Below are positions 13,596-64,000 of a DNA stretch of 64,000 bases, piece after piece. A program made the position numbers and the translations under genes. The notes beneath the pieces are model-generated. The model was not told where the DNA came from and ran no database searches. It saw nothing but the letters and a program-made list of their open reading frames with translations. Every line of letters starts with the position of its first letter. Within the stretch, counting starts at the first letter, position 1. Source of the stretch: a virus (taxonomy: Duplodnaviria; Caudoviricetes); IMG/VR virus record IMGVR_UViG_3300021400_000191, positions 1-64,000 of that record; one strand, given 5' to 3'.

Positions 13596-14146
13596 TTTCG
13601 TTTTCTCCTTTTCTTTTCTTTTCGCTTGCGTTTTGCAAGAGATTCTGGATAAAGCCAACCATTTGGTTCTCTGTTGATGATCTCTTTCAGAGTAGGCTTG
13701 CGAGCCATAGCTTCTTTCAGTCGTGCAAACCCGTCATCGGTCTTACCCTTAACTGACGTGTCCGGCACGAGCTTGACAAATATTGGGAGAGTTCTTCTGG
13801 CAATAACGCCAGAGGTGCTGCATGGAAACCAGAAGATTGCACCTTCAGGGTAATACTTCTTGGTTGCATCATGATGGTAGTGCTTATCGCCATGCATGTG
13901 GTCGCGAGTACGGTAGGCACTCAGGAAATCGACGAGCTCATCATGCTTGTTAATGCTTGCCACGAGCAATCGCGGCATAGCATTAATCATTTTGCCATCA
14001 ACTCTGGCAACCCTGAGCCCTGATCTATTTTCACTGAAGCTGCTACTCTTGCAGAGCACATAGCTTGGTTCGATAATTCCTTTTTGCAGATCATCCTTAG
14101 ATACTATGCCGAGGAAAAAGTAACCAGAGTCATTGGCATTAGGCAC
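13583..14146 (-). CDS. Hypothetical protein with basic C-terminus
   Basis: GGAGG RBS before GTG at 14146. Confidence 0.5.
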   Translation of the reverse strand: MPNANDSGYFFLGIVSKDDLQKGIIEPSYVLCKSSSFSENRSGLRVARVDGKMINAMPRLLVASINKHDELVDFLSAYRTRDHMHGDKHYHHDATKKYYPEGAIFWFPCSTSGVIARRTLPIFVKLVPDTSVKGKTDDGFARLKEAMARKPTLKEIINREPNGWLYPESLAKRKRKEKKRRKRKWKT

Positions 14147-16901
14147 TCTCCTTCCTCCTTTGCCGTCTCTGCTGTTTCTTCTTCTCATTATGTGCACTGA
14201 GGTAGATGCGTCTGTGCTCTGCAGCACAGTCGGAGCAGCGACACGAGGTCGGCGAACCCCTCTTGACTACCTTTCCGCAATCAATGCACTTAATGAACCC
14301 CTTCGGGATAGTCGTGCAGGCATGGTTCTGAACCCAGTCTGGGACTCGCATGCCGCAGTTCTCACATTCATGGCAAGCTGCGATGTTCTGCTCAATGACC
14401 TTACAAGCATAGTCACCGAACACACGCCAGAACATCTGTTTATGCGCAAGCTTGGTAGCATTGGCGCCGGTAAACAGATACTTGACAATGGATGGATACG
14501 CATCTTCAAGCGTGATTCCATTCACTGCGAGCTCGTGGACGATGTTCTCAGCAACAATGCCATAATCCAGAAGCTCGACCTTATCTTCCATTGTGGAAGC
14601 ATTGTGAGCCATCTGCATGACGCTTGTATTGTTGTCAAGTTGAGAGAAAATTCTTATTGCCAGAATGTTGTAGTCACGGATGTCGTGTGTCATCAGCATC
14701 TGCCAGTTGAACGGAGCAACACCAGCCAGATTCATGTTGATGTTTGGCATCTTCATAAATCTGGAGCAGATCCTGTTCATGACACTGTTGTTTGACTTGG
14801 CATACTTCTTCGGCTTCTCGGATTCCTTGCGACCATTCTTTGAGAACTGAAAGAAAAATGGCATGCGTGATCTTGGACCGCCTGCGGCTTCCTTGATTCG
14901 CTCTGCCACTTTAGGAAAGTTTTCAAATGGAATGATCTTTGCGGTCTTGGCTCCATCAATAACCTGATTGTTATAGAACGTAATATCCGCAGCCGAGTCG
15001 AAGTCAGGGTTCTCCTTACTCCAAAGCCGAGTCAGCATGTTTGAGATCTCGCCAATACCGGAGTAGTCATGCGCTCGCTTCAAACCATTGAACATGGTTT
15101 CACGAGACATCATTTCTGGTGCGGCCTTGAACGAGTTGTAGTAAAGCGGAACGATGTCGTATTTCTCAATCATCCGCTTCGCAACACTGATGATCGTTGG
15201 GTTGTTAGTTACATTCAACTGATCCCCATCGACATCGAACTGGAGCACTCGTGAGATCAGGTCTTTGCAACTTGTCACAATTGCTCTGCTTGGGAACCAC
15301 TTATAAGCTTCAGGATCTTTGCTGACCTTTCGGATGTTGTGTTCGAAATACAGAGAGGGAGATCTCAGTACATCGACGACTTCATCCTTGATAAAGTCTT
15401 TGCAAAGAACTTCACCGGGCTTGACCAGTCCGTCAGGCTCATCAATATCGAGGAACCAGTGCTGACAAGCTGCATACATATCAGGAATAACGAACAAACG
15501 TTTGTTCCTGCACTGCAGTTTGCCGGACCGTGCATCGAGGACCATTCTCCTTTTGATGGCGCGAAGCGTCTCTCTGGAGTAAGCCTCATGCAGAAGCTCA
15601 GGATACAGTGCAAGTGCACGATGATAAGCCTGTGGGCTGTTCTCATCAGCACCAAGCGTCCTGAGCATCGTGTCCTTATCACGGGCCAGGTTCGTGATCC
15701 TGTCATGCGAAGGTTGCACAAGAGCATCAATCTCTTCATCGGTCATATCAACAAGGGTCTGCAAGAACTGATAGTTCATCGGCACATCCTTGGAATATGG
15801 CTCCTCATAGTTGGTGACATTCATATGGCAACCATTCTTTTTGAATTCTGCCTTGTAATGATCCCATGAGTCGTAATAACTCCAGAGCTTCAGCTGGCTT
15901 GCACAGAAGACCACCTTGATGTTTTCGGCAACAAGGTCATGCACCTTGCCCCAGACATCTTTGAGCTCTGGCTTAACACCATGCACACGACAGAACTCGA
16001 TGAAGTCAAACGGAGTCAGCAGTCCTTTGATCCATGGTCCGCGAACCATAACGTTCTTTACACCAAAGAAGAACGAATTCGGGAGATACATACCGCTTCC
16101 GTCAGTATGCTTGATCGGCACGGTATTGATCCCCTTGATATGCTCATACTCATTGGTGATGTAGAGCATTCGACCAGTCACATCGGCTTCGAAATCGTCG
16201 ATAACGATGGCTTCATCGATGTTAAAGTCAGGCCACGGATCGGTCGCACTGAACGGCAGCGCAGAGTAGGCAAGAAACTTGTTCTGATTGATGCCGCCTT
16301 TAGCATTGATCAGTTCATTACTGATGCCACACTCCAGATGAGCTGTCATTCGCTGACCATCATCGGACAAAGCCTGCACCTTATCTGTTCGCAACTGGCC
16401 CGCACTTGCAGTCGTGATCGTGTAATGCTTCATCGTTACAACGCCATCATTCTGCAATATGGGCATATCAAAACCATAAAGTACAAGCTGTTCCAAGATA
16501 TCCGGGTTCTTCCATTTGACAATGACCTTGTCAAATGTGATGCTCCTGTCTTGGAGCCCCATACAACGGCTTCCATCACTCACAAACTCTGATATCTGCT
16601 TGGTGTTCTTCAGATCCCACCAAGTAATACCATCCTTCACTTCACGCATAGGTGAAGTGATATTGTCCATACGTACAACTCTGGGAGTTGGTCCATGCTG
16701 TTTGATAAGGTCCGCCAACTGAGCACTAAGAAGCTTACGCTTCTCCCCCAGAATTTTGGTTTGCTCCTTATCCTTTGATTGGTTCATTTCATTAATGGTT
16801 GCAATTATTTCTTGGTATTTCTTCCACTCCATATCGGTCATGAGATCATACGTTGTAATGCTCATAAGCCGAATTTGTTCTGAAAGATATGACTTGTTCA
16901 T
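14139..16901 (-). CDS. Single-subunit two-barrel RNA polymerase, YonO-like (polymerase A)
   Basis: ASAGQLR, HTDGSGM, MVRGPWIKGLL, LRSPSL, catalytic LQFDVDGD (15222-15239), GEISN, ID.AKT. Confidence 0.88.
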   Translation of the reverse strand: MNKSYLSEQIRLMSITTYDLMTDMEWKKYQEIIATINEMNQSKDKEQTKILGEKRKLLSAQLADLIKQHGPTPRVVRMDNITSPMREVKDGITWWDLKNTKQISEFVSDGSRCMGLQDRSITFDKVIVKWKNPDILEQLVLYGFDMPILQNDGVVTMKHYTITTASAGQLRTDKVQALSDDGQRMTAHLECGISNELINAKGGINQNKFLAYSALPFSATDPWPDFNIDEAIVIDDFEADVTGRMLYITNEYEHIKGINTVPIKHTDGSGMYLPNSFFFGVKNVMVRGPWIKGLLTPFDFIEFCRVHGVKPELKDVWGKVHDLVAENIKVVFCASQLKLWSYYDSWDHYKAEFKKNGCHMNVTNYEEPYSKDVPMNYQFLQTLVDMTDEEIDALVQPSHDRITNLARDKDTMLRTLGADENSPQAYHRALALYPELLHEAYSRETLRAIKRRMVLDARSGKLQCRNKRLFVIPDMYAACQHWFLDIDEPDGLVKPGEVLCKDFIKDEVVDVLRSPSLYFEHNIRKVSKDPEAYKWFPSRAIVTSCKDLISRVLQFDVDGDQLNVTNNPTIISVAKRMIEKYDIVPLYYNSFKAAPEMMSRETMFNGLKRAHDYSGIGEISNMLTRLWSKENPDFDSAADITFYNNQVIDGAKTAKIIPFENFPKVAERIKEAAGGPRSRMPFFFQFSKNGRKESEKPKKYAKSNNSVMNRICSRFMKMPNINMNLAGVAPFNWQMLMTHDIRDYNILAIRIFSQLDNNTSVMQMAHNASTMEDKVELLDYGIVAENIVHELAVNGITLEDAYPSIVKYLFTGANATKLAHKQMFWRVFGDYACKVIEQNIAACHECENCGMRVPDWVQNHACTTIPKGFIKCIDCGKVVKRGSPTSCRCSDCAAEHRRIYLSAHNEKKKQQRRQRRKESA

Positions 16902-16904
16902 TTT

Positions 16905-23895: not shown

Positions 23896-23898
23896 GTT

Positions 23899-35000: not shown

Positions 35001-38000
35001 TTAGTCGTACAGCATTTCGTATGCGGTTTCGTCAACGAAGAACAGGTCTTCGCTGTCGAGGTCATCGGCACGCTGAGCGACCTCAGCAACCTCGATGAAG
35101 TCAAGGTCAGCCTTGCGCATACTTGCGTACACGCGGTCCGCCTTCTCAACACGGTCGAGCAGATCAGGCGCGAACACCTGAAGAGCGAACATGGCATAGC
35201 GTGCCTTCACTCTTGCGGCATTCTCCGGGTTCTCGTCGTGCTTGGCGAACCGGTTCTCGTGACCGATCTCGAATGCATCACGCAGGATCGTGTCAACGAC
35301 GATCTGCCACTTGCGATCCTTGTCGGTGATGTCACCAAGATCCAGCTGACCAATGATTTTGCCGGTTTCAGGATCTTTGATACCAGGCTTGTAGGACCAT
35401 GCCGTGTCATCGATCATGCTGTACAGCATCGACCTGGTTGCCTTGTAGACAAGGTCCTTGGTTTCCGCAGCAGCCATCTCAGTGGCAGCATTGGTTGCCT
35501 CAGAAGCGAAGCCGCGTTCGAGCTCTGCTAACATACGGAAACAGAACTGTGCAAAGCGGACCACACTAACAGGCTCACCATTGGCAATAGCCGTTGCTAC
35601 ATCGCGGTCTTCAGCGCTGTCCAGAGTATTCGCGTTAAAGCGGTTCGGGTTGATCTGGTGCAGCAGTCTGCTCCGAACGATACCGTTCTGGGCGTTCTTT
35701 GCGGCAACCATCTTCCCATCGACCATGATGGTCGCAGGCTCGATGTGGAGCTCGCTGAGGATGTTGAACTCAGGAGTCTCCTCGAACTTCGCCTTGGTGA
35801 CAACGCCGTTGTTGTCTACGCGCATGCCAGCTTCCTGCATAACAGCCATAGCAATCGTGTCGATCGCGGCATTGCTCGGCTGAGCATAGCTATGCTTCAG
35901 GTACTTTGTTCCCTTCATGCTCATTCTTTCAACGGGCTTGCTCTTCGTCACGAAGCAGCAACCGGGCTCATGGTCACGGAACATCTGAGCCCACGGCTTG
36001 TAGGCGAAGACGTGTCCATTCACATACTCACCCTGAAGGTCGAGCAGCTTCAGTGCCACATCGAAGATGTGACGGCTCGGAGTACCCATAGCAGGCACGC
36101 CGGTCTTACACCAGTCGATGGTCAGGATTGCACCGACCTGGAACAGGTTTGCGAGCATACCCCAGCGATACGCCAGATCCATGTCACCGGTCTGATATGC
36201 ATTGCTGCACATCGTCCATGCGAACATGGCGCTGTTGCTGAAGCGACCGACATAGTTGAACGCCATGCCATTGAACACGGCTTCGACCCTACCCTTGGTC
36301 ATCCATTCAGCAGTGGCCTGTCTGGATTCGGCGCCGTCACCATGCTCGAAGATGACAGTCTTGTTCAGACCAAGCTTTCTGGCAACCTCTTCCATGCGCT
36401 CGAACATAGCAACCAACCAGTTGTTGGTGTATGCTGCTGCATGGTCGCCGTCACAGTCACCATCATTGTCGATGATCCACGGATCATGGATGTTCAGCAT
36501 GATTATGTTGCCGCAAGTGTCGAACAGACCAATCTCACGGTTCCTCATAACTGTGCCATTCAGGCCATTGGACGGATAACGGACGAGGACCGCTTTCTTT
36601 CCGTCGCGCATACCGGGCGTGCTGAATTCGCCAGCTGCCAGCATACCGAGATTCGGCTTATCAGCAGATGCGCCAAGGAGCGCGATTTCAATCATGGCGG
36701 ACACATCCTGCGCCTGGAAGAGTGTTGTCTCTTCAGTAGCGAAGTTTGCGCTTGCCAGAGTTGCGAGCTCGTCATACATCTTGACCAGCATCGCAGTCTT
36801 CACCTGCTTCTGCCCGATCAGCCAGGGCTTTGCACGGAACAGATACTCGAACTGAGTAACCGTATCCTCATCCTTGCCAAGTCCAGCCAGTCTGCGCAGA
36901 GCACCGTTGACTGTTGCCAGCTGCGCGGCTTTCTTACCGCTGCCTTCCATCAGCAGATGAGCATCGCTTGCACTCATGTTGAGCAGCTGCGACATCAACT
37001 GACGGCTGGTGTGACGATTTGTTTCCATTTCGTCCAGAGCATCTGCGTTGCTTACAACCCGCAGGCAGTCGAAGCCATCATATGTTTCTGCCAGCTTCTC
37101 AACGTTGGCAACATACTTAGCCCAGTTGGCTTCGCCATTTTCACCGCGGAACCACTTCTTGGCTTTCCAAGTAGTATCCGTAGTCAGGCAGCTACCTTCA
37201 CGCCAGAGATGCATATTGCCATCGATATCTTCTACATAGATATCTTTTCCAGCCAGTTCTGCATATTCAGGCTTTGCTGCAATGATTTTATCAAGCAGCC
37301 CATACACGCCAACAGCGAACTCCTTCATACTGCCAGCCATTCTGCACTGACAAGGCTCGAAGCCCTCGATATTGACCAGTGTCATACCATCAAATGCATC
37401 AGCCTCAATTGTGGCATAACCCTTGGGATCGACAGTGATCGGGAGCGTGAAGTCACGCTTGCCATTCACAGTGTTTACGGTCACTGTAACGTCCGTACCC
37501 TTGCCGACAATGATAGCACCCTTGGTGAGCGGGATCTTGATCTTGATAGCCTTCATCATGATCATGTCGCGCATATGGATGCGACGGCGATGCTCCTTAC
37601 CATTAGCATCGGTCCAAGTACGCTCCCAGATCTTGCTGGGAGTATTGAACAGAGCGGCGATCTTGTACTGCTCCTGCCCATTCGTTACAGGCAGTTCGTC
37701 AAGACCGAGCATGAAGGCAGCGTTGTGTGCCTTCTTTGCTTCGCTGTCAATCAGCATACCAACGCCCTTCTTCAGACCGCTGTTGCTGTAGCACCAGCTT
37801 TCGAAGTGGCGCTCATCGTTGCCGAAGGATACAGTGAATCCTTCTGTCTCGAAGCGCTCGATGTAGCCCTTCGCGAGGCGTTCGATGCGCTGCTCGCCGT
37901 CAAGCTCTTCACCGGTCTTGATGTCCAGCTTGCAAGGGAACAGGTCCTTTGCGTTCAGAACATTCAGTCTCTGCCACAGATTGTGGTCAATGATGACCAG

Positions 38001-38957
38001 CTTATCCTGCAGACCGCGATCGTTGATACCAACGATATCGCTCGTCAGGCTCTGGGCAAGAGTACGAGTCTCAAGCTCTTCAGCCCTCATGACCGGGAAG
38101 GCGATCTTCTTATCGAAGACCTCTTCGAGATAGGCAAGAGCACGGCATGCTTCTGCCTTGACACGGGCAGTGTACTCCTTGGAGCATTCGCCACTCTTAA
38201 GCGGCTTGCGCTTGCCATTTGCATCAAGCCCATGCAGTGCGTTGATAGCACGCAAGACGTCAGCCGAGAAGATGTTCTGAGGCTTGATCACCGCTGCGCG
38301 ATAGCGCTTGAGCGCAACACGAGTGGTCTTCTCAACCTTCTCCTTCGGCTGATACGCCTTACCGGACTTAGCAGCACGGATCAGCGTCTGCATGGCTTCG
38401 TCGCCAATGTAATCCTTTGCGATGTTGCTAAGCATCTGACGGATTAGTGCAATATCGATCATTACAATGTTACGTTCATGAGCCCACAGATCGTACTTGG
38501 CCCAATCAGCGGCTTCCACAGCTTCGCCCATGCGGCGGTTGTATTCCTCGCGGCGCTGTGCAAGCGCAACGATGCGTTCGCCAAGATAGTTGATCTTGGA
38601 CGGACTTGCCTTCTTTTCAGGCTTGGGCGGCATAGGCTTGCGCTCAGCACGAGCGGCTGCACGCTTTGCTTCGGCGGCCTTGTTGGTGGCCTTACGGGTT
38701 GCCTTCATCAGGCGAACCTTGGCCTTGTGAGCAGCGGCACGGTCGGCCTTCGCAGCCTGGTTGGATGCATCCTGCTTGGCAATGCTCTTTGCAAGAGCCG
38801 CCTTCTTGATGGTCTCGTGCTCGGCAGTAGCCTTGGCGATATTCTCCTTCGCCTTGGCAATGTCAGCCGCATTGTTTGCGGCTACGGCTGCATCGTATGC
38901 AACCTTAGATTCAGTGTTGTACAGGCAAACGGCGTGATTAGACAGATACTTCTTCAT
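35001..38957 (-). CDS. Large two-barrel RNA polymerase-like protein (polymerase B, ~1318 aa)
   Basis: YSNSGLKKG, DAFDGMTLV, QCRMAGSMK, LVRYPSN, catalytic DGDCDGD (36444-36464), VGRFSN, IDWCKTG; AAGGAGG RBS before ATG at 38957. Confidence 0.8.
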   Translation of the reverse strand: MKKYLSNHAVCLYNTESKVAYDAAVAANNAADIAKAKENIAKATAEHETIKKAALAKSIAKQDASNQAAKADRAAAHKAKVRLMKATRKATNKAAEAKRAAARAERKPMPPKPEKKASPSKINYLGERIVALAQRREEYNRRMGEAVEAADWAKYDLWAHERNIVMIDIALIRQMLSNIAKDYIGDEAMQTLIRAAKSGKAYQPKEKVEKTTRVALKRYRAAVIKPQNIFSADVLRAINALHGLDANGKRKPLKSGECSKEYTARVKAEACRALAYLEEVFDKKIAFPVMRAEELETRTLAQSLTSDIVGINDRGLQDKLVIIDHNLWQRLNVLNAKDLFPCKLDIKTGEELDGEQRIERLAKGYIERFETEGFTVSFGNDERHFESWCYSNSGLKKGVGMLIDSEAKKAHNAAFMLGLDELPVTNGQEQYKIAALFNTPSKIWERTWTDANGKEHRRRIHMRDMIMMKAIKIKIPLTKGAIIVGKGTDVTVTVNTVNGKRDFTLPITVDPKGYATIEADAFDGMTLVNIEGFEPCQCRMAGSMKEFAVGVYGLLDKIIAAKPEYAELAGKDIYVEDIDGNMHLWREGSCLTTDTTWKAKKWFRGENGEANWAKYVANVEKLAETYDGFDCLRVVSNADALDEMETNRHTSRQLMSQLLNMSASDAHLLMEGSGKKAAQLATVNGALRRLAGLGKDEDTVTQFEYLFRAKPWLIGQKQVKTAMLVKMYDELATLASANFATEETTLFQAQDVSAMIEIALLGASADKPNLGMLAAGEFSTPGMRDGKKAVLVRYPSNGLNGTVMRNREIGLFDTCGNIIMLNIHDPWIIDNDGDCDGDHAAAYTNNWLVAMFERMEEVARKLGLNKTVIFEHGDGAESRQATAEWMTKGRVEAVFNGMAFNYVGRFSNSAMFAWTMCSNAYQTGDMDLAYRWGMLANLFQVGAILTIDWCKTGVPAMGTPSRHIFDVALKLLDLQGEYVNGHVFAYKPWAQMFRDHEPGCCFVTKSKPVERMSMKGTKYLKHSYAQPSNAAIDTIAMAVMQEAGMRVDNNGVVTKAKFEETPEFNILSELHIEPATIMVDGKMVAAKNAQNGIVRSRLLHQINPNRFNANTLDSAEDRDVATAIANGEPVSVVRFAQFCFRMLAELERGFASEATNAATEMAAAETKDLVYKATRSMLYSMIDDTAWSYKPGIKDPETGKIIGQLDLGDITDKDRKWQIVVDTILRDAFEIGHENRFAKHDENPENAARVKARYAMFALQVFAPDLLDRVEKADRVYASMRKADLDFIEVAEVAQRADDLDSEDLFFVDETAYEMLYD

Positions 38958-39241
38958 GATTATCCTCCTTATCATGAATGTCTTGCACACACCTCGCCTT
39001 TGTGTTATATTTAGCAAGGTGCTGTGTGCGTACTTGCTTGACTCGCGTAACGCACACTGTGCATTGTGTGGGCTCCACTGTTGGCGCAGTGGAGCTTTTG
39101 TTGCGCTCAGAATGCTTGAGCATGAGCCCGTGATAATGGGAACACTACACGGCTACACCCGATATACGGGGTCGGTGTACCCATTGCGGCTAAGCCGCCA
39201 TAAAAATAAAAAAAGAGGGATGTTGAATTCCTCTCTTTTTA

Positions 39242-53467: not shown

Positions 53468-53481
53468 AGGAGCGATGTACT

Positions 53482-53727: not shown

Positions 53728-54025
53728 CACTTGTATCGAGCAGGCTCCGAGCGGTGTGTGGTACGTCACGCCGATGTGGCGCGACTCCCCCATCCTGTAT
53801 GGTTATGATGGTGACTATGCCGAGCTGCTCGAAGTGCTGAAGCTTACTGTCGATAAGAAGAATGCTATCGATAATCAGGTGAACCCTATTCTCCAGTGGC
53901 TGTATAAGCTGATGACCGAAACGGTCGACCCCACTCTTGATGAATTCGAAACGGACCTCATGCATGGTGCGCTCGAATATCTCAACGGCAAGAAGAATGA
54001 AGGCTGGGACTTCGCTAAGAAGTGA
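53690..54025 (+). CDS. Hypothetical protein
   Basis: AAGGGGG RBS. Confidence 0.55.
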   Translation: MTRKAEVLNGLIDTCIEQAPSGVWYVTPMWRDSPILYGYDGDYAELLEVLKLTVDKKNAIDNQVNPILQWLYKLMTETVDPTLDEFETDLMHGALEYLNGKKNEGWDFAKK

Positions 54026-54064
54026 TCGCAATTTGCTAGGGGCATTCGTGTCCTTAGCAAGCTT

Positions 54065-54139
54065 GCCCGAGTGGTGGAATAGGCAGACACAGCGGACTTA
54101 AAATCCGTACAACTACGAGTTCAAGTCTCGTCTTGGGCA
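54065..54139 (+). tRNA. tRNA-Leu(UAA) with short variable region
   Basis: GCCCGAG/CTTGGGC acceptor stem, TGGTGGAATAGGCAGACAC Leu-type D-arm, CTTAAAA loop, ACGAG-TTCAAGT-CTCGT. Confidence 0.8.
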
Positions 54140-54150
54140 TTTAATTATTT

Positions 54151-54426
54151 TTGGAGGTGTTGCGCATGAAACATGACCGCGCTTATAAACGTAGGATGAC
54201 TAGGTTGAAGAATAAACGCCGCAAGGAAATGTGTGAATACATTCCGTTCTGGCGCAACATATGGTTCGATAAAGATAAACAGAGGGCCGTCGCAACAAGC
54301 GCTTGGCATGTGCGCAAGAAGTTTGTGAAAACGCATGCTTCGCGTGCTCATCGGCGCGACCCTGTTGAGCAGACCAAAGGTTGTGCATACAAGAAAGTGT
54401 ACAACGTTCGGAATCAGATCTGCTGA
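54151..54426 (+). CDS. Small basic hypothetical protein
   Basis: GGAGG RBS (start probably 54166); Arg/Lys-rich. Confidence 0.55.
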   Translation: MEVLRMKHDRAYKRRMTRLKNKRRKEMCEYIPFWRNIWFDKDKQRAVATSAWHVRKKFVKTHASRAHRRDPVEQTKGCAYKKVYNVRNQIC

Positions 54427-54449
54427 GTTTGTGAAAGGAGTGAATTGAT

Positions 54450-57400
54450 GTGGCTGATGTATTATCAATGACAATACAACTTGATGGATATCAAGATCTT
54501 ATTGCGGCAGCTGATGCTGGCGAAAAATTAAATCAGTCTTTGGAAAATATAGAGAGAACAGCGAGCAGAGGACCAACAATTTTTAATAATTACACACGGC
54601 ATTTACGCACAGAAGTTCAGGATGCCGTTGATTTGATGGACTCCGCTAAAGAGAAATTAACAGATCCAGATACTAAAATGAATTCATATACATCTGAGCT
54701 TCGTACTGGTGAATATGAATTTGGCGCTAAGACAATGACTGCTATTTCACACGATTTGTCTAAGCTGCAAGCTCTTTCTAAAACACTGAATGGGTTCCAC
54801 TTTAGTGAGTCTGACATCCATCATATTGAAAAGCAGCTTCCAGCTTTGAACAGACTTATTCGGTCAGTTGGCAACACGTTCGGAGATAACACAAGTCGAA
54901 TTACTTCTTTATCTCCTGATAAATATATACGCTCAGCTGTTATGGCAACCGAAGAATATCAAGGTATTTTGGAAAGCATGTCGAGCTTGGCTTTCTTTCA
55001 GACAAAGACAGCAAAAGGCAAACAGCGCAAAATACCCAAAGGTCAAAACTTAGATAATTTTATGGAGTCACTTGTCGATTACAGCATTGTGAATGTTTTG
55101 GATGCTGTGCAACGATATGACTACATGCAACATTTCAAAGGTATGAAGCATAGTCATATTGGCTCTTTTGAGAGTTATGAGGATATGCTTCCGAAAGCTT
55201 TCAAGAAAGCTCGCACTGGTCTTACACAAGTGTCCAATGCAGACTTTGCTTCATTACTTACAAACAATGACTTTCTTACCAGAAGACAGAAAAAGAGTCT
55301 TGGAGATGTAATTCAAGAAAATACTTATATGGCTCAGGCTGCAGAACTTGCTGGCATTGCATCAAGATCAAAAGGCACTTTGAGTGTTAATAGGCACGTG
55401 ACAAGACAGCAAGTTAATGCTGCTGCCGGTTATTTGTATCAGATGATCGAAAACGGCGCTCGTGGCATGCCGATGTATGGTATCAAAGATGTAAATAATC
55501 CTGACGACTTTGAACGCATCTTGAATAAAAACAATAAATTGCTGAACGGTTCTATGAGTGCTGCCAGATTCCTGTCGGATCATTTTGATTGGCTTACTCC
55601 CCTTCTGTATGGTTCATCACAAATCAATGATTTAAACACACAAGTTGTATCTCAGATGCGCACAAAAGCGCAAGCAAAGAATCCCAAGGTGGATCTTAAT
55701 AGAATTAATAACAGCACGAGGCAATTAGGCAACATTCATTTTGATGCGACTCCTAATGCTTATCAGGTTACTCATTATTCATTAGACGATATTGCACAGC
55801 ACAGAAGTTGGCAGAGCGGAGATCCTTATAGTGAGACTGATCGAGCACACAAGATGGTTGTCAATGGCAGTATGGGGTTGGACAAAATAATGAGAACTGC
55901 AGAGGGTGGTCGAGTACTCCCTCACAATTCTGCTCTTGATTATGTCTTTTATATTGATTTGGATCCGCGTTTGATCGACGAATCTACTCCGCAGGATGTA
56001 CGCGATAATCTTATGCGTCAAGTTGGCGAACTGTACACAAAAGGAACGTCAGTTAAAATTGGCGGTCAAAAAACAAAGTTCAAAGCAACCAGAATTAATC
56101 CGAAGTCCCTTGGCATTGAAATGGTTCGCGCTGACATAGTTGATAACATTGAAAATAAACAAGGTTTGAAAAATTTCTTTACTGGTGGCATTACTCCAAG
56201 AGTTTTCGATAACAGCCAAGACTTTGCCAAGTTCATGGAGTACAGTTCCAAGATCGCTACAGAAGGTGTAGATATACGACAACTGTATGGTAAAGATGCT
56301 TTGCCTGACAAAGACAAAATTGTTATCGTTGATATGGCAGCATACACTGGTGCGAACGATAAAACAAAAGTTCCAGGATTGAACGGTGCTAGTTATATCA
56401 GTAGCGGGTTGACTGGTGGCAACGCATTTCAGGCTCGTATGTTTGGCTACAAAGGTGTTCTGAACTCTGTCAATATGGGTAATGTTGTTGAAGCTTTTAC
56501 CGGCAACAAGAATGGTGAAATCGTAGTTCCTGGCTATGGCGGCACATTGCAAAAGATTACAAAGGACACCCAGATGGTCATCAATATGGAAGACTTAAAG
56601 GGTGCTGGATTAAGGTTCGGCAAAAATGCTTCTTATGATGAGATCCAAAAAATTATTGCACAGAACATTGCCGACAATAGTATCTATGTTAATAGAACTG
56701 CAAATCAAGCTGGGCGTACACATTTAACATGGATTCCTGCACAGCTTGCTCAGACACTTGATATTGATGCGAACCAAGCCGATGTGTTTCAAAAAACATT
56801 CTGGGATATATTCAGAAGTGTTGGTACGCCAACAGGTGCGGCGAAATATATTTTCGCTGATGACAGTGCCCTCTCAACCAGCCTGCTTTCAGAAGGCGGT
56901 GCCGCTCTATTAAATAAGAAACCTTACAAGAATCGTATTGAAGCATTTAGAACTCATATGATTGAACGTATGAGTCGAGGCGATCTTCCTATGCCTGAGG
57001 GAGTACAGGCGCATCGTGGCATGCTGGCTCCTTGGGCAATCAATGTATTCTCAGATGCTATCAATGAAATGTATAAAAGAGGGCAAATCGGTGCCGACCA
57101 AGTTCCGCGGAATATGTGGGATGGAGGCTGGGTACCGGAAGCTGGCCCGATTACTAACGGAAAAGCAAGGCGTTTTATCGATAAAAAGACTGGGCAAGTT
57201 ATAGAAGATCTGTTGCCGAAGGATGCCAATGGGCAAGAATTAAGCTCGGCAGATATTGCCAGATTACGTATAGGCGAGAACGATGCTGTGTTCTCTAAGA
57301 GTATGGCTACACTGTTGGGTATTAGCCGTTTCCCGGCACAGATCCAATCAGCACAAAAAATAAATAACAGAGCTAATGATAAGGCACTTAAAAGTACTAA

Positions 57401-60400
57401 TTTCAGGAAGCTCGTCCAACAGCTTGGTATGGACCCGAATGCTATCTATTTGGCACAAGACTCTCCTCTTCTCGGATTAATGCAAGGTGCTGACTTTGAC
57501 GGTGATATGTCAGATATCATTGATCTTATGAGCAAAGATGGCACTACCATGCAAGACATGATGAATAAAATCTGGGATAAGACTGTTACATATCATAACG
57601 ATCTTGTTGCGAGAGCTCAGCTTGCCCCGGATGAGCGCGACCGTATTCTTGAGAAACAAAAGCGTAGCATTTTTGGTGACCAGAAAAAGTTCGATCCGCG
57701 TAATGCGTTGGATGTTGGACGGTGGGTCACAGCCTCTATGATGCAATCAATTCGAATGGGCGGGCCTAATGCTATTTCCAGAAACGCAATGCAGATGGAT
57801 ATCACTCCAGATATTGCGAAAGAACTTATCATGGCTTTTGACCAATACGATACAAACTCTACTTCTGCAAAAACTGGTTATTTCTTTGAAACACCAGATA
57901 CAGCAAAAAATATTTTGTTTGGTTATAAGTCTTGGGACCAGTTTAACAACCAATTAATGAAGAGCAGAGATAGTAAAAACAATATTGACTATGGTCGTTT
58001 CTTAAAGACAAATTTGTTCAAAATGAATTTGCCATCGATACATATGTCTGGGAACATCTTAGCTTCATTACTTGCAAGAAGTACCGCTGCACAAAACGGT
58101 GTGCAGCTGGATAATGGTGTAAGTTGGAGTACTGCTTTTGCCAACTCTACTCTGGGCAATTTACAAAGACTTAAAGATAAAGGTTATTTAAATGAGGCAT
58201 CAGAATCGGCATTAACAAAAGAAACAAGACAATTTATTACTGGCATGGAAAGCTTGCTTCTTGGCGAACTTCGCGGCGACTATGTTATTGCATCGCAACA
58301 TGATGCTGACGCGTTGCTTGATATGCGCACGAAAGCAATTAACGCTGAAATGAGAAATGGACATAACCATCAAGAAGCAGAATATATTATTGGCGAGTTT
58401 GGTGGAACTGTTCTTAGCAACTTGCTTGACCCTAATTACGGCTTGACAGATGAACACATCAATGATGCTTCCGATTCAATTAAACGTACTATGCGTGCTT
58501 TTAAAAGATTCGGCGGTGGATATAGCACAAGCCATCTTGACTTCGACAGTATTGCCAAAATGGCTTTGTCATCTAAAAGGCAGTATGAACGTGTTGATCC
58601 GTCCTCTGCGCTTGGTAAACTTAAATATCTCCCACACGATGCTATACAAGATAAACTCGATAATACTGGATGGTCTGTAACAAGCTTGATCCATTTTGCA
58701 GAAGACCCTGTTGACTGGGTTGTTAATCAGCTTGGACAAATGGACACCAAGCGAGACACTGGTACAAATGCACATACTATGTTTGGTCATGCTGCAGAAG
58801 ATATGATTCAGGATTACTTTGATATTCGCGAAAAGCTTGTGCGCAAGCAATTGAAAGATGATCCAAATGCAACACGAGCTTTGCCAGAAGCTGTTAAGAG
58901 ACAACTGCTTGAAGATATCTGGAATGGTAAAGAAATAGTAGATCCAGAAGATAGTTCAAAGAATATTAAATTTGAATCATTTAGTGATAGGCTTCGGGCA
59001 TTGGGCAAAGATGCTAACTGGGATGACGAACGTATTGAAGCAATGATTGATGAAATTACTTCTAAGCCCAATGGTGGTCATATAGCAGAATCCAGATTGC
59101 AAAAGAAATACAGAAGATTCAAAGCTTTTATGTCATCTCAAAATCAAAAGGGCATTCTGTCTATTCTCCCAGAGTTAGCAAATGAATATATCGGTAGCGA
59201 AGATGATCTGACTATTAGTAAACTTGGTGAGCAACTTGGTGACTCGTCAAAATCCATTGATATGCATGGTCATCAGGACTTGCTGTTCAGAATGCTGGAC
59301 AAAGATAATAAGCTCAACATTATTGATATTAAAACATATGGCGGTCTTGAAGATTTCACAATGGATAAAAAACGAGCTGTTGCCTTCCAGCTGCAGATGT
59401 ATGCAAATGCTGACGAGTTCCGTCAAGGCGGTCCTGATAAATTCAAAAACAATGGTATTGGTGCATTGAATGTGCTTTTGGCTGACGCTGCAGCTGGACA
59501 AAACATGTATGCTATAGACTCTAGTCAAGAATCCATAGCGCATGCTGTGCGTGCAGCATCGCGTGTCATTCAAACAATACAGAATTTTTCAACTTCCGGG
59601 CTTGGACTTGATGCAATACAAAGAGCTAGTTTACTTGCTAATAAATTAATGTTTAGTGGCGGAATCGACGATGAGTTCGCGAAAGAATTGCAATTGTCTG
59701 AACGCGCAATCAAGCAAATGCGTGGCACAGGAATCTCTGATGCCGGTGCTTTGGGCGGTGTTTTAACTTCGCATGAAGATTACAAAGAGGCGATGGAGAG
59801 AACACAAAAGCTGTCGAAATCGATCCAAAGAAAATTAATTCCAGAGGACGAAAAAACAATAGGTAACATTTGGGACAGCTATCACGCAACAATCCGAGGG
59901 AACGAAGATACAATTGCAACTCTTGAAGCTCGTGGTAATTTCGCAGAAGCTGCAAGGTTACAGCGAGAAACAAATGATATAAAAGATCTTTATTATAGGA
60001 CTGTTCCAGAAGCCGCTATCCGTAGCTATTCTGACCTTGCTGATCAAATTGAAAGAACGAATAAAGGAATGATCGCTTCTAAAGAAGCAAAAGGTTTGAC
60101 AGAACAATGGAATGATTTAGCGAAGGCAGTACAGAATGCGAATAATGATTACAATGAGTTGAGTAAACTTATTGATGAAAGTAAAGGTACTGGTAAGAAA
60201 ATAAAAGATGAACGCAGTGCTTTTATAAAACAGCAAAAAGATATTGCTAAAGCAAAAGCTTCTGGCACTATGACAGACGAGCAGAAAAAGAATGAAGTTT
60301 CTGAAGAGGAATATAATGCAAAAATAAGCGACTTCAATTCTCAACTGCAAGAAACTGCTGCACGAGTCAAAGGATATAAACAAAACCAGAGACTTGCACA

Positions 60401-63400
60401 GAAGTTAGGTTTGAAGGCGGAAGAAGCTCGGCAAAAATTTCAGGAAACATTAAGCAATCAGGCTGACGAAATCATCGAAGATGAATATGATACTTTATCA
60501 AGAGAAATCAGCGGTGAGGTTGGTCCAGATAAAAAGGTGCCAAGCATTAAACAGCAGCTTGATAATTACAAGCTGATGGTAGGAAGACATCTTGGTAATA
60601 TCGAAGAATTCAGAAAAAGCGGTCTGTATTCCGACGACAAGGCTCTTGCACTTAGTATGCAGGCTCAAGCTCTTCTAACTGATGATAACATGGAAAAGCT
60701 CCGTCAACGTTATATTGGCGATGCATTAACATCACAGCGAGCATCAGTTAATGATATTATTGGTGCGTCAGATACTCGTGCAGACATACAAGCTGCGGTT
60801 GCTAAAAAGCAGTTTGATATTGATCAAAGCAAAGCAACCATTGCCAAAATATTCGAGGGTGAAAATTTAAATCTGGATCAGCAACATCTATATGATGCAT
60901 TGCTGCGTGATCTTGATAGTTTTGATTTGCAAGAATATCGTAGTCAACTCATTGATAAAGCAATTGATGCATATCAGACACAGACAAGTGGATCCAAAAT
61001 CAAAAGCTCATTTGACATAAAACGCAGTCAAAAACAAGCTGTTGAAAAGATGCTTCAAGATGATATATTGGAAAATAGCGCTAATTTGCGTACTGGTTTA
61101 ATTGAGGGTTATTTAGGTCAGGCAAACGGTGAAGCATTTCTTAAACAGAATTATGCAGATGAGTATGCACAATATTTGAAAGTTAAACGACTTAAACAAC
61201 AACTTGCCCGTTCACAATCTATTGATTTAGATGCTAATGAAAAACTTGAGCTTGAGGCTTTCCACAACAAACAGATGGAACAAGTTGCCAACATTACCGC
61301 TGCTCTTACTGGGGTCGGCACATCAAGCATGAAAATGTCAGAACTTAGAAGTGCTTCTTTGGCAACGCAGCTTAAATCTTTGTTTCAAGACGATGCTTTT
61401 AAAGGCAGTGATGGTAAACAACATATACCTTCTGCTTTACAAAAATATATTGATGCAAATGGCAAAGTTCAATCCGGTGAAATCTTGCAGGATATTATAA
61501 AGGATGAACAGGAACGTCAAAAGCTTCAATTATTAGAAACAAAATCTAATGGTGACATTGGGCATAAAATTAACATGGCTCAGCTTGATGCTGCTAAGAG
61601 GCAGTATAACATGGCTCGCTTACAGTATGGTCCGACATTTGTGGGCCGTAGTTGGCAGTATAATGATCAGCAGTATTTGTCATGGATGCACCAACGCAAT
61701 TCAGCGCAAACTGCAATTGACAGAACAAATGCTCATATCAATCAGTTAAATTATCAAAGGAAGCACACTGATCCAACCGATACAGATAAGCTTGCTTTGA
61801 TTGATGAAAACATCCGTATTGCCAATAATGCTCTTGCCGACTACGATGCAAGCTTAACTCAGGCAGATGCTGCCATGAAAGAATTCAGTTCTACTGGTGG
61901 TCTGCTTCGTACTACGTTAATGAATGTCAGCAATGCTGCGGAAAATCTCCTTCTTCAGTTAGGCAAGCGAGCATTGCAAACTGCTTTTAAAGAAGCCTCT
62001 ACATTCGTGCGTCAGTTCAACGCTGACATGTTGACTATTCAAGCAATTTCTGGTAAGTCTACCGGTGAGATGGGTGAAGTGCGTGCTTCTTCTATCAAGC
62101 AAGCAAAAGAATTAAAAACATCTGTTTCCAATGTTACTTCAACTAAGGCTGCTCTTTACAGACAGGGTCTTTCAGATAAAGAGGTAGAAGAAAGAACAAA
62201 TGCTATCGTTAAGTTTAGTACTGTAACCGGTGCGAAAATCACTGATGCAACAAAAGGTCTTACAACTGCTATTCAAACTGGACTCGTGTCCAATATTAAT
62301 CAGGCTATGGATGTACTCACTGCTCTTGGCGATAGTGCAGCTACGACCGCAGAAGAAATTGAAAAAGGTATGCAGAAAGCTGCGGCCTCTGCAAAGACTG
62401 CCGGAGTCTCCTACAATGAATTGACATCAATGCTGACTATTGCAACAAGTAAGACACAGCTCGGTGGTGCACAGGCTGGTACATTTTTCCAGACATTGTT
62501 CAGCCGTATGAATCGTGTTACAAAAGAAGGTTTCATTACGGACGAAACCGGTGAAACCACAAGTATCAATGATGTTGAAACCGCATTGAAAACTGCTGGC
62601 ATCAGATTAAGATCAAGCAAAGATGTGTTCCGTAGTTCTTTCGATGTGCTTCGAGAACTTGCTTCTGTATGGGAAGGGTTGTCTGACTTACAGAAAGGCA
62701 ACATTACTTATGCAATGGCTGGCGGTCGTCAGGCTAACATGTTCAATACACTTATGGCTGGCATGGGCGAAGATGGCGGCAAGCTGCTTGATGAATATCT
62801 TGGTCTTGCTGATAATTCTGATAACACAGTTCAGAGTAAGTATGAAGTTGTAATCCAAGGAATTCAGGCTGCAATGGATAACCTGAAGTCTACATTTGAT
62901 GGTTTCGTTGAAAGCCTTGGTTCGGATAATATGATCACTGGTTTGCTCAATGGTGTCACTGGTTTGGTCCAAGGTTTCACAAATCTGAGTGAGGCTGGCA
63001 GTGCGGCGATCCCTGTGATCACAGCATTAATCGCGGCTCTTGGTGCATTGTCAATTAAGATAGCGGTCTTTGGTTTCCTTAAAGATATCGCAACTATGCC
63101 TGATGCTTTGGCTATTACTAAATGGGCTGCTGCTTCTGCTGGTCTGATTAGTACTGTTGCTGCTATTGGTGCAATTGCCGGTGTTGCTGGCACAGCTGGT
63201 GGAATCGGAAATGCGCTTTTTGGCAAACCGGAACAAAAGGAAACAGATGGTGAACTGTCAAGAACAAATACAAATGCACTCAAAGAAAAACAAGATAGAC
63301 GCAGAAAAGCGGTTCAAGATGCGATCAATGATATTGATAACATCACGACAAAGTATGAAGACACATTTGATAACATTCCTACAGAGGCTACCGATGCTCT

Positions 63401-64000
63401 TGGTACTGCGGTCCAAACGTTGTCAGTGTATTTTTCTGGCCTTACTGATAATGTTAACCAAGCTTCTGGTTCTCTTGAATATTACACTGAAGTTGCAAAG
63501 AGAGCAAAAGAAGCAAGCGAGCAGCAAAATAAAACTGATGCTTCAACCTTGTTAGCAGAAGCTATGGGTGGCATTACTGAAAGTCTTAACACATACAAAG
63601 ATACAGAGCAAACATTTCTTGCTGAACATACTGGTACGAAATTGACTAGTGATGGATACGTGTATGCAAGATTAAATAACTTTGTTGGTAAAACTCCACA
63701 GTTGTATGATAATTTAGAAGCATTATATCGAAGCGACAAAGATATTTTAACAGAACAAGACTTCAAAGACATAGGTATATCTCTTACTGATAGTGAAAAA
63801 GAGCTACTTGCCAATGGGTCATATGGTGAATTAAGCAAAGTATTGCAAGGCAGATTATTTTCCAGCACTAGCACATTAGGTGGACTAACGGAATTATTGT
63901 TCGCAAATGCATCTGGTATGAGTAATGCAATTGATACCAACTTTTGGAATGAAAATGGTGAACAAGTTGGAAATATCAATGATATTACGGATGCGCTCGA
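54450..64000 (+). CDS. Giant tape-measure protein with N-terminal two-barrel RNA polymerase (polymerase C) and PD-(D/E)XK nuclease domains (partial, >3180 aa)
   Basis: AAAGGAG RBS and GTG at 54450 (MADVLSMTIQL...); same frame carries FQARMFGYKGVL (56427), SRFP (57324), ADFDGD (57489-57506), IIDIKT and FQLQMYA (59319-59405), and a TP901-type tape-measure core (~62000-62900); no ORF in this frame appears in the track, consistent with no stop before the window end. Confidence 0.85.
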   Translation, partial: MADVLSMTIQLDGYQDLIAAADAGEKLNQSLENIERTASRGPTIFNNYTRHLRTEVQDAVDLMDSAKEKLTDPDTKMNSYTSELRTGEYEFGAKTMTAISHDLSKLQALSKTLNGFHFSESDIHHIEKQLPALNRLIRSVGNTFGDNTSRITSLSPDKYIRSAVMATEEYQGILESMSSLAFFQTKTAKGKQRKIPKGQNLDNFMESLVDYSIVNVLDAVQRYDYMQHFKGMKHSHIGSFESYEDMLPKAFKKARTGLTQVSNADFASLLTNNDFLTRRQKKSLGDVIQENTYMAQAAELAGIASRSKGTLSVNRHVTRQQVNAAAGYLYQMIENGARGMPMYGIKDVNNPDDFERILNKNNKLLNGSMSAARFLSDHFDWLTPLLYGSSQINDLNTQVVSQMRTKAQAKNPKVDLNRINNSTRQLGNIHFDATPNAYQVTHYSLDDIAQHRSWQSGDPYSETDRAHKMVVNGSMGLDKIMRTAEGGRVLPHNSALDYVFYIDLDPRLIDESTPQDVRDNLMRQVGELYTKGTSVKIGGQKTKFKATRINPKSLGIEMVRADIVDNIENKQGLKNFFTGGITPRVFDNSQDFAKFMEYSSKIATEGVDIRQLYGKDALPDKDKIVIVDMAAYTGANDKTKVPGLNGASYISSGLTGGNAFQARMFGYKGVLNSVNMGNVVEAFTGNKNGEIVVPGYGGTLQKITKDTQMVINMEDLKGAGLRFGKNASYDEIQKIIAQNIADNSIYVNRTANQAGRTHLTWIPAQLAQTLDIDANQADVFQKTFWDIFRSVGTPTGAAKYIFADDSALSTSLLSEGGAALLNKKPYKNRIEAFRTHMIERMSRGDLPMPEGVQAHRGMLAPWAINVFSDAINEMYKRGQIGADQVPRNMWDGGWVPEAGPITNGKARRFIDKKTGQVIEDLLPKDANGQELSSADIARLRIGENDAVFSKSMATLLGISRFPAQIQSAQKINNRANDKALKSTNFRKLVQQLGMDPNAIYLAQDSPLLGLMQGADFDGDMSDIIDLMSKDGTTMQDMMNKIWDKTVTYHNDLVARAQLAPDERDRILEKQKRSIFGDQKKFDPRNALDVGRWVTASMMQSIRMGGPNAISRNAMQMDITPDIAKELIMAFDQYDTNSTSAKTGYFFETPDTAKNILFGYKSWDQFNNQLMKSRDSKNNIDYGRFLKTNLFKMNLPSIHMSGNILASLLARSTAAQNGVQLDNGVSWSTAFANSTLGNLQRLKDKGYLNEASESALTKETRQFITGMESLLLGELRGDYVIASQHDADALLDMRTKAINAEMRNGHNHQEAEYIIGEFGGTVLSNLLDPNYGLTDEHINDASDSIKRTMRAFKRFGGGYSTSHLDFDSIAKMALSSKRQYERVDPSSALGKLKYLPHDAIQDKLDNTGWSVTSLIHFAEDPVDWVVNQLGQMDTKRDTGTNAHTMFGHAAEDMIQDYFDIREKLVRKQLKDDPNATRALPEAVKRQLLEDIWNGKEIVDPEDSSKNIKFESFSDRLRALGKDANWDDERIEAMIDEITSKPNGGHIAESRLQKKYRRFKAFMSSQNQKGILSILPELANEYIGSEDDLTISKLGEQLGDSSKSIDMHGHQDLLFRMLDKDNKLNIIDIKTYGGLEDFTMDKKRAVAFQLQMYANADEFRQGGPDKFKNNGIGALNVLLADAAAGQNMYAIDSSQESIAHAVRAASRVIQTIQNFSTSGLGLDAIQRASLLANKLMFSGGIDDEFAKELQLSERAIKQMRGTGISDAGALGGVLTSHEDYKEAMERTQKLSKSIQRKLIPEDEKTIGNIWDSYHATIRGNEDTIATLEARGNFAEAARLQRETNDIKDLYYRTVPEAAIRSYSDLADQIERTNKGMIASKEAKGLTEQWNDLAKAVQNANNDYNELSKLIDESKGTGKKIKDERSAFIKQQKDIAKAKASGTMTDEQKKNEVSEEEYNAKISDFNSQLQETAARVKGYKQNQRLAQKLGLKAEEARQKFQETLSNQADEIIEDEYDTLSREISGEVGPDKKVPSIKQQLDNYKLMVGRHLGNIEEFRKSGLYSDDKALALSMQAQALLTDDNMEKLRQRYIGDALTSQRASVNDIIGASDTRADIQAAVAKKQFDIDQSKATIAKIFEGENLNLDQQHLYDALLRDLDSFDLQEYRSQLIDKAIDAYQTQTSGSKIKSSFDIKRSQKQAVEKMLQDDILENSANLRTGLIEGYLGQANGEAFLKQNYADEYAQYLKVKRLKQQLARSQSIDLDANEKLELEAFHNKQMEQVANITAALTGVGTSSMKMSELRSASLATQLKSLFQDDAFKGSDGKQHIPSALQKYIDANGKVQSGEILQDIIKDEQERQKLQLLETKSNGDIGHKINMAQLDAAKRQYNMARLQYGPTFVGRSWQYNDQQYLSWMHQRNSAQTAIDRTNAHINQLNYQRKHTDPTDTDKLALIDENIRIANNALADYDASLTQADAAMKEFSSTGGLLRTTLMNVSNAAENLLLQLGKRALQTAFKEASTFVRQFNADMLTIQAISGKSTGEMGEVRASSIKQAKELKTSVSNVTSTKAALYRQGLSDKEVEERTNAIVKFSTVTGAKITDATKGLTTAIQTGLVSNINQAMDVLTALGDSAATTAEEIEKGMQKAAASAKTAGVSYNELTSMLTIATSKTQLGGAQAGTFFQTLFSRMNRVTKEGFITDETGETTSINDVETALKTAGIRLRSSKDVFRSSFDVLRELASVWEGLSDLQKGNITYAMAGGRQANMFNTLMAGMGEDGGKLLDEYLGLADNSDNTVQSKYEVVIQGIQAAMDNLKSTFDGFVESLGSDNMITGLLNGVTGLVQGFTNLSEAGSAAIPVITALIAALGALSIKIAVFGFLKDIATMPDALAITKWAAASAGLISTVAAIGAIAGVAGTAGGIGNALFGKPEQKETDGELSRTNTNALKEKQDRRRKAVQDAINDIDNITTKYEDTFDNIPTEATDALGTAVQTLSVYFSGLTDNVNQASGSLEYYTEVAKRAKEASEQQNKTDASTLLAEAMGGITESLNTYKDTEQTFLAEHTGTKLTSDGYVYARLNNFVGKTPQLYDNLEALYRSDKDILTEQDFKDIGISLTDSEKELLANGSYGELSKVLQGRLFSSTSTLGGLTELLFANASGMSNAIDTNFWNENGEQVGNINDITDAL

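Follow-up and report, generated by a model that had tools for sequence, protein, structure and literature searches.

The locus described here raises the question of whether the tape-measure protein of a tailed phage can also bring an RNA polymerase (RNAP) and a nuclease into the infected cell. It lies at the right-hand end of a stretch of 64,000 nucleotides (IMG/VR virus record IMGVR_UViG_3300021400_000191, positions 1 to 64,000; Duplodnaviria, Caudoviricetes), called the window below, which is the first 64 kb of one 101,738-bp virus contig without N. The gene in question is one uninterrupted frame of 5,803 amino acids (aa) in tape-measure position, in which three domains are identified and the catalytic residues are strictly conserved. 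We consider it likely that this gene encodes a tail tape measure with an active single-chain two-barrel RNAP and a RecB-type nuclease in its N-terminal third, and that the protein is delivered with the virion for early transcription. The concept of such a fusion is already published for the Thermus phage P23-45; the present family is a sequence-unrelated instance of it. The protein consists of the RNAP domain, the nuclease and the tape-measure core, followed by about 2,900 further residues. Its features, in window coordinates, are as follows.

54450..64000, continuing beyond the window to contig nt 71861, + strand: giant tape-measure open reading frame (ORF), 5,803 aa, without a stop codon in the window
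55047..55796, + strand: conserved N-terminal region, aa ~200-449; phmmer blocks begin at about query residue 200 (q200), conserved in the alignment consensus, no family match
55797..58859, + strand: predicted two-barrel RNAP domain resembling YonO and RNA-dependent RNA polymerases (RdRP), aa ~450-1470, from AlphaFold2 (AF2), Foldseek and hhalign
56379..56462, + strand: first-barrel motif LNGASYI...FQARMFGYKGVL, aa 644-671, with G646, Q661, R663 and K668; aligns with YonO TDGCGMM...FMVRLPWVKGLL
57123..57248, + strand: variable connector between the barrels, aa ~892-933, with low pLDDT and a phmmer gap
57327..57335, + strand: R-x-P motif, R960 and P962; aligns with YonO RSP
57492..57506, + strand: putative metal-binding motif D1015-F-D-G-D1019; aligns with YonO DNDGD
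58671..59549, + strand: predicted RecB/Cas4-type PD-(D/E)XK nuclease domain, aa ~1408-1700, with D1610, D1626-x-K1628 and Q1647..Y1651
59670..61649, + strand: long linker, aa ~1741-2400, poorly conserved, with weak or partial phmmer blocks and no family match; its helical look comes from the sequence only
62013..63050, + strand: TP901-type tape-measure core, aa 2522-2867 (TIGR01760, PF10145, four tape-measure PHROGs)
62991..63200, + strand: two hydrophobic membrane-type segments, aa 2848-2878 and 2892-2917 (Kyte-Doolittle mean at least 1.6 over 19 residues)

The reading frame and its family

An earlier note on this DNA had described a single frame from GTG 54450 that meets no stop before the end of the window. 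Translation agrees with this: the frame 54450..63998 (+ strand, GTG start, open at its 3' end) gives 3183 aa within the window and contains no stop. The size of about 3,180 aa did not stand; on the contig the frame ends at nt 71861, which makes a single protein of 5,803 aa. The start at GTG 54450 is plausible because it is preceded by AAAGGAG at 54434-54440, a ribosome-binding site, and by an in-frame TGA at 54441-54443. The motifs from which the gene had been recognized are present, at or near their expected residues: LNGASYI at aa 644, FQARMFGYKGVL at 660, SRFP at 959 and GADFDGD at 1013, followed by MFGHAAE at 1444, HQDLLF at 1608, IIDIKT at 1624, FQLQMYA at 1646 and IQAISGKSTGEM at 2530.

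No stop was found in the frame, and homologues, IMG/VR records and independent sequencing runs agree on its continuity. A 98%-identical protein of the same 5,803 aa is recorded on four contigs, its members carrying no functional names. Contigs from three other animal-gut DNA runs, belonging to two further studies, cover 27, 28 and 30 of 30 ORF bins. Among the strain differences listed for these runs, 37 of 40 substitutions fall at third codon positions (there are 693 further ones) and there are no insertions or deletions, a pattern that indicates selection on the frame.

Some details of these contigs are noted without being counted as findings. Two of the three independent runs have no contigs over ORF nt 10459-12201. 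One gut-run contig skips 331 nt at ORF nt 16778-17110 (contig 71227-71559), within a linker near the C-terminus that is rich in Gly, Ser, Thr and Asn; it may represent a relative or a length variant of this linker. Both observations come from contigs only. In addition, 13 contigs from an RNA library of the likely source sample lie on the giant gene; the library may contain DNA, and they are not taken as expression.

The gene belongs to a broad family. An exhaustive HMMER search with aa 420-1420 as the query (E up to 0.001) returned 46 representative proteins (clusters at 50% identity), 40 of them with E-values of at most 1e-10 and 23 with at most 1e-30. Giants of 3,695-6,003 aa, with 19-44% identity to the query, make up 24 of the 46. 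They have a common order of phmmer blocks: the polymerase region at q200-873 and q935-1470, the tape-measure core at q2400-3050 and a C-terminal block at q4900-5803. The shorter homologues begin at the same offsets and extend to their own ends. Such a shape fits genes cut at contig ends and hence gives no evidence for a stand-alone form of the polymerase region, which may exist.

The same arrangement was found in viral contigs. A degenerate DNA pattern for LQxADFDGD identified 12 loci in IMG/VR viral contigs, four of which are true homologues; in each of these four records one open frame (5,045, 5,061, 5,176 and 5,700 aa) spans both the polymerase region and the C-terminal region, and a Dit homologue follows directly downstream in all four. 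In genome contigs, the pattern gave no true homologue among at least 120 loci, and no prophage or host was found there. A tblastn search with the first 2,000 aa gave no match at E 1e-5 in a collection of 50,697 phage records, from which close neighbours of the window may be hidden, and a homologue search with aa 450-1480 returned only P0002 and P0003, neither with a functional name. Metagenomes from the gut of goats and other animals contain near-identical DNA, and the family is present in gut samples of goat, cattle and sheep.

The polymerase and nuclease domains

The two-barrel RNAP proposed by the earlier note is borne out by the conservation of its motifs, by the predicted fold and by a profile relationship to YonO tested against shuffled sequences. 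Ten residues (G646, Q661, R663, K668, R960, P962, D1015, D1017, G1018 and D1019) are invariant in 24/24 giants, and the D, D, G and D of DFDGD are invariant in all 32 rows of the alignment that cover those columns.

The AF2 model of aa 450-1480, computed with a 30-row alignment, has a mean pLDDT of 82.0 and a pTM of 0.79. When it was compared by Foldseek with 350,542 PDB chains, two single-chain two-barrel RNAPs ranked first and second: maize RDR2 (7w82, E 3.4e-5, probability 1.00) and the non-virion RNAP (nvRNAP) gp62 of phage P74-26 (8f5m_B, E 8.7e-3, probability 0.99). All other matches had probabilities of at most 0.06. The best match in BFVD is A0A8S5SZT9, annotated as 'RNA dependent RNA polymerase [Podoviridae sp.]' (E 4.3e-11, TM 0.41), and the second (E 8.4e-5) has no name. 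Judged by these matches, the predicted overall fold of aa ~450-1470 is that of two double-psi beta-barrels. In the model, the FQARMFGYKGVL motif lies on predicted strands 660-664 and 667-674, and DFDGD is in a loop before strand 1020-1027; by alignment and model, R663 and K668 (with Q661) would be the basic residues of the other barrel and match the R and K of YonO. Long helices follow the DFDGD motif (model H584-607 and H637-664), in the part where a bridge helix and trigger loop would be expected. The inter-barrel connector has a pLDDT below 50 at model residues 443-464 and 466-484 and corresponds to a gap (q873-q935) in most homologues. As modelled, it is reminiscent of gp96, the tape-measure polymerase of P23-45, in which a short disordered connector takes the place of the clamp.

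The relationship to YonO is invisible to BLAST and HMMER. With an hhalign profile made from the family alignment (41 rows), SPbeta YonO is matched over 282 columns at a probability of 90.5% (E 1.4e-6); the match runs from DG...FQxR..G.K via RxP to DFDGD. The version trimmed to aa 430-1480 reaches 92.5% (E 4.9e-7, score 64.7), and a four-sequence YonO alignment gives 82-89%. As controls, 30 YonO shuffles gave at most 0.5% (score at most 22.9) and reversed YonO gave 0.1%. SPbeta YonO is thus the best profile match, with about 282-285 columns, 82-92% and E 5e-7 to 1e-5. The same method found no relationship to P23-45 gp96 (aa 1-1300, 0.5%), P23-45 gp64 (1.1%, 16 columns only, at the DxDGD site) or gp66 of phi14:2, a crAss-like phage (0.1-0.3%). 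In the ESM Atlas the RNAP domain is best placed near unlabelled clusters (0.85), with an RdRP cluster at rank 11 (0.80); recognition is low and we give this result no weight.

In its form the domain departs from the YonO family, whose members are free-standing proteins of ~840-920 aa with a C-terminal cysteine cluster. SPbeta YonO is a separate protein of 839 aa with conserved C-terminal cysteines, whereas the domain described here is fused, cysteine-free and flanked by other modules.

The RecB-like nuclease of the earlier note is also upheld. The nuclease block is present in 12 of the 24 giants, and G1446, G1607, D1610, D1626, K1628, Q1647 and Y1651 are invariant in all 13 alignment rows (own sequence included). 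D1610, D1626, K1628, Q1647 and Y1651 form the D...DxK...QxxxY pattern of RecB-type PD-(D/E)XK nucleases. The AlphaFold model (pLDDT 88.2, pTM 0.88) predicts a restriction-endonuclease-like fold for aa ~1408-1700, and its nine best Foldseek matches in the PDB are all RecB-family nucleases (AdnA, the Cas4-family protein ACE1, AddB, Exo5, RecE and AddA), with probabilities of 0.82-1.00. The D, D-x-K and Q..Y motifs are common to the phage domain and this family, whose members come first among its predicted-fold matches. AddB, Cas4 and Exo5 carry an iron-sulfur cluster held by four cysteines. In contrast to these enzymes, the phage domain has no cysteine, so that it cannot hold such a cluster, and it sits inside a predicted virion protein.

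The absence of cysteine is a property of the whole protein. There is no cysteine among its 5,803 residues, and the 24 giants have 0-3 each, whereas the free YonO orthologue of this phage has 20 and its 1,338-aa protein 17 (see below); in a greedy ORF set of the rest of the phage, cysteine makes up 2.0% of residues. P23-45 gp96 and the SPbeta tape-measure protein YomI have none. Cysteine avoidance thus looks like a tape-measure trait that is extended here over the polymerase and the nuclease. As it spans the full length, it hints that these two domains share the exit route of the tape measure from the particle.

The tape-measure core, its neighbourhood and further candidate polymerases

The TP901-like core recognized in the earlier note was confirmed by two family models. 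PF10145, the sole Pfam match of the protein, covers aa 2550-2758 (E 5.1e-23, 82.4 bits against a cut-off of 33.2), and the NCBIfam model TIGR01760 (tape_meas_TP901) covers aa 2522-2867 (E 4.1e-26, 91.8 bits against 28.8). Four tape-measure families and one family of unknown function among the PHROGs match the giant protein. Further towards the C-terminus there are glycine-rich linkers at aa 5164 and aa 5590. Internal repeats suspected by eye in aa 3,900-4,800 found no support, self-BLASTP giving no off-diagonal match below E 0.1.

The position of the gene is that of a tape measure. Directly downstream come a homologue of Dit (phrog_33) and a Tal of 1,920 aa (PF06605), as well as other tail proteins; upstream are the large terminase, the portal, the major head protein and a virion structural protein. 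Dit and Tal downstream of the gene, and hydrophobic segments after the core, follow the order of TP901-type tape measures. The position given by the earlier note therefore holds on its downstream side; the frameshifted chaperone pair that it placed upstream was not identified. The small ORFs in 52689-54025 match no PHROG or other family; among them, 53482-53727 and 53690-54025 overlap with an offset of +1, the latter having an ATG of its own. Between these ORFs and the giant gene, positions 54064-54140 encode a tRNA-Leu(taa). An ORF for a very basic protein of 86 aa (54166-54426), with no significant family, stands directly before the giant gene, where chaperone genes are usual.

Two further genes of the window are candidates for RNAPs.

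14139..16901, - strand: free-standing YonO orthologue, 920 aa, 20 Cys, candidate non-virion RNAP (BLASTP against SPbeta YonO)
35001..39017, - strand: 1,338-aa protein with DGDCDGD, 17 Cys, candidate third (RdRP-like) RNAP (ESM Atlas clusters)

The first is 32% identical to SPbeta YonO over its full length (E 2e-125, BLASTP). YonO is a non-virion enzyme for late genes. Orthologues are also found in two relatives (G001 and G003), and G001 contains, in addition, a YonO-like frame of 815 aa that is more distant (G001:98049-99344). For the 1,338-aa protein, the nearest ESM Atlas clusters carry the PF05183 RdRP family (25 of 30 matches, score 0.96), and a weak BLASTP alignment with YonO is found at the DxDGD site (E 0.2). 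It has no Pfam or NCBIfam match, was not found in the four IMG/VR relatives, and showed no hhalign link to the tape-measure polymerase domain or to gp64. Its assignment as an RdRP-like polymerase is a lead only.

The 1,338-aa protein is encoded in a leftward block (34.8-41.7 kb) adjoining the structural module, which begins at 41.8 kb. Repeats occur between the genes of this region: A-tract and GA-rich hairpin repeats at 34792, 34968, 39206, 40294, 40757 and 41162, and a 39-nt hairpin repeat, GGCCCACGTAGTGGGCC (GGCCCAC-hairpin), at 34405, 34479 and 34657. The intergenic repeats of 34.4-41.8 kb may serve the phage polymerases as promoters or terminators. The large terminase has its best matches in SPbeta-type phages of Clostridium (c-st), Bacillus and Staphylococcus, with 23-28% identity, and the phage may be described as distantly SPbeta-like. 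Together with the strong AAAGGAG ribosome-binding sites, these matches point to a Gram-positive anaerobe as a possible host. Its DnaE-type DNA polymerase III alpha appears split into two ORFs on the - strand, 4356-6146 and 7011-8345 (PHP and N-terminal part, and finger part). A Toprim-DnaB primase-helicase lies at 10691-12553, and a reverse transcriptase (RVT_1, E 2.3e-18) at 22732-24063 on the - strand, within the replication-side block.

Proposed delivery with the virion

The nearest known system is that of phage P23-45 (Chaban et al. 2024, Nat Commun 15:317, PMC10770324). Its tape measure, gp96, has 5,002 aa and an N-terminal two-barrel RNAP with DFDGD at 779-783, and activity was shown for gp96 fragments of at least 1,200 aa. 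Virions contain this RNAP domain within full-size gp96. The domain was shown to bind the pre-early region, to which the gene of a second, non-virion RNAP belongs, and it makes defined pre-early transcripts from promoters. Transcription concomitant with the translocation of DNA through a tape-measure pore is proposed in the Discussion of that paper. Its main text places such fusions in P23-45, P74-26, G20c and TSP4 and mentions neither YonO nor a nuclease. YonO-like enzymes are described in Clostridium phage c-st and Bacillus phage 0305phi8-36 in the passages of Iyer et al. (2021, PMC7824862) concerned with them, where a fusion is not mentioned. In the published literature, a tape-measure-fused virion RNAP was found for Thermus phages only; the supplementary survey of PMC10770324 lies outside this scope and may list relatives.

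The giant protein and gp96 are alike in gene position, in giant size (5,803 and 5,002 aa) and in their lack of cysteine. Both have an N-terminal single-chain two-barrel RNAP, predicted here, with DFDGD at 1015-1019 and 779-783, respectively, and, in place of the clamp of other RNAPs, a short connector that is disordered or variable. Both phages also have another RNAP-like gene, encoded on the opposite strand a few kb to the left of the junction on the terminase side. For P23-45 this is gp64, at 35.3-37.1 kb of the record, with structural genes from 42 kb onward; for the present phage it is the 1,338-aa gene, at 35.0-39.0 kb, with structural genes from 41.8 kb. The two tape measures, however, show no detectable relationship in sequence: besides the hhalign probability of 0.5%, full-length BLASTP gives only non-collinear scraps, and no gp96 chain is among the Foldseek PDB matches at E up to 10. 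gp96 has a Peptidase_M23 domain, no PF10145 and no nuclease, whereas the giant protein has PF10145, TIGR01760 and the RecB-type nuclease, and no M23. P23-45 comes from a hot spring and this phage from the animal gut; this phage, unlike P23-45, also has a true YonO orthologue. Finally, the functions of gp96 are established by experiment, while the giant protein is known from sequence and models, and its functions are deduced.

By analogy with gp96, the whole giant protein would be assembled inside the tail. At infection it would be expelled via the tail tip, the hydrophobic segments helping to form a channel through the envelope. The N-terminal polymerase would leave last, just before the DNA, and could transcribe the first-entering genes without host RNAP; these are probably the leftward block 34.8-41.7 kb, including the gene of the 1,338-aa RdRP-like protein. 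Transcription of the later gene classes would then pass to this protein and the free YonO orthologue. Delivered in the same way, the nuclease would most likely cut DNA ends, either of host DNA or of DNA that is processed during entry. The phage thus probably injects its own transcription enzyme. A bioRxiv abstract gives a tail of 800 nm for the 5,002-aa gp96; by this ratio, the tail would be roughly 900 nm long if the whole 5,803-aa chain measures, and about 650 nm if only aa ~1,750-5,803 do.

Several points weigh against this reading. The presence of the protein in virions, its ejection and the activity of the polymerase are deduced by analogy with P23-45 gp96. It is not obvious how a folded domain of about 115 kDa would fit into the lumen of the tail tube, and the contig has no terminal repeat, so that it does not set the genome ends or the first-entering end. 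As to the polymerase itself, no Pfam RNAP family, PF05183 included, matches the protein at E up to 1; the first 3,183 aa, searched by phmmer against solved structures, gave no match at E up to 1, and the family-profile HMMER search of the PDB gave two chance matches only (E 0.79 and 2.5). RDR2 and P74-26 gp62 are the closest predicted-fold matches, yet sequence identity to the RNAP matches is only 9-11%, and the global TM-scores are low (0.25-0.43), as is expected for multi-domain enzymes with different accessory parts. The YonO link appears real but marginal and depends for the most part on SPbeta YonO: when three YonO orthologues of gut phages were compared singly, the hhalign probabilities were only 0.9-2.0% (collinear over 200-285 columns), and the YonO orthologue of this phage gave 1.2% against the family profile. 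For the nuclease, the E-values of the fold matches are 1.6e-3 to 0.12, none reaching 0.001, and the domain is missing from 12 of the 24 giants.

Tape-measure proteins are in many cases processed, and the polymerase and nuclease might be cut from the ruler during maturation of the tail or head, leaving a ruler of ~aa 1,750-5,803; they would then be separate cargo or act in the producer cell. The poorly conserved linker (aa ~1,741-2,400) and the glycine-rich linkers at aa 5164 and 5590 would suit such a polyprotein, and the earlier note had also allowed for cleavage from the tape measure. We regard this as improbable: the RNAP domain in P23-45 virions is found within full-size gp96 (PMC10770324), Pfam and NCBIfam scans of the protein revealed no protease domain or cleavage motif, and the depletion of cysteine over the full length suggests one shared fate.

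The genome of T7 is pulled into the cell by transcription. The main task of an active polymerase in the tape measure could likewise be mechanical, pulling in the 100-kb genome, or it could be priming for a PolIII-type replicase. The location of the polymerase at the point of DNA entry and the very long predicted tail would fit the former, as does the transcription during translocation proposed for P23-45 (PMC10770324); the split DnaE-type polymerase and the primase-helicase would fit the latter. Nevertheless, the phage already encodes a Toprim-DnaB primase-helicase, and the fused enzyme of P23-45 makes defined pre-early transcripts from promoters, which renders such a main role quite improbable; it would in any case be compatible with gene expression.

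That the polymerase-like region survives as a structural relic without activity, such as a plug or an adaptor at the head-proximal end of the tail, is very improbable. The activity is so far a prediction, the connector is variable and modelled with low confidence, and there are no zinc-binding cysteines, all of which would fit a relic; against this, the three aspartates, the glycine, Q661, R663, K668, R960 and P962 are invariant in 24/24 proteins that are otherwise 19-44% identical, a pattern typical of a working active site. An artefactual origin of the long frame, by chimeric assembly or by the joining of several genes, as might be suspected of a metagenome contig without terminal repeat, is excluded for practical purposes by its 5,803 codons without a stop, the protein of this length on four contigs, the 24 giants with identical domain order, the four single frames of 5,045-5,700 aa in IMG/VR and the three independent runs that span it with no indels listed. 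We therefore retain delivery of a fused polymerase and nuclease as the preferred reading.

A wider scenario may be proposed tentatively, which we hold to be possible but doubtful. A widespread lineage of animal-gut phages of 100-150 kb would have gained a tape-measure-fused virion RNAP independently of the Thermus phages, from a YonO-like ancestor. It would run a cascade of three polymerases (first the tape-measure enzyme, then the RdRP-like early protein, then YonO), free of host RNAP throughout, and, in half of the lineage, co-inject a cysteine-free nuclease that attacks host or competitor DNA at entry.

The finding matters less than the earlier note held, because its principle is already published. 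The published tape-measure-fused virion RNAPs belong to one small group of Thermus phages, and the same predicted design is now seen in a sequence-unrelated family of at least 46 clusters at 50% identity, with 24 full-length giants, from the ruminant gut. What is new in comparison with gp96 is a polymerase whose nearest relative appears to be YonO, a tape-measure core of another type, the additional nuclease and the two free genes for candidate polymerases alongside. If delivery is true, transcription by a tail-delivered enzyme would no longer be a curiosity but a strategy that long-tailed phages use recurrently, and an injected nuclease would have to be added to the proteins known to enter cells along with phage DNA. 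The family would also offer a mesophilic system for asking how an enzyme of 115 kDa passes through a tail tube.

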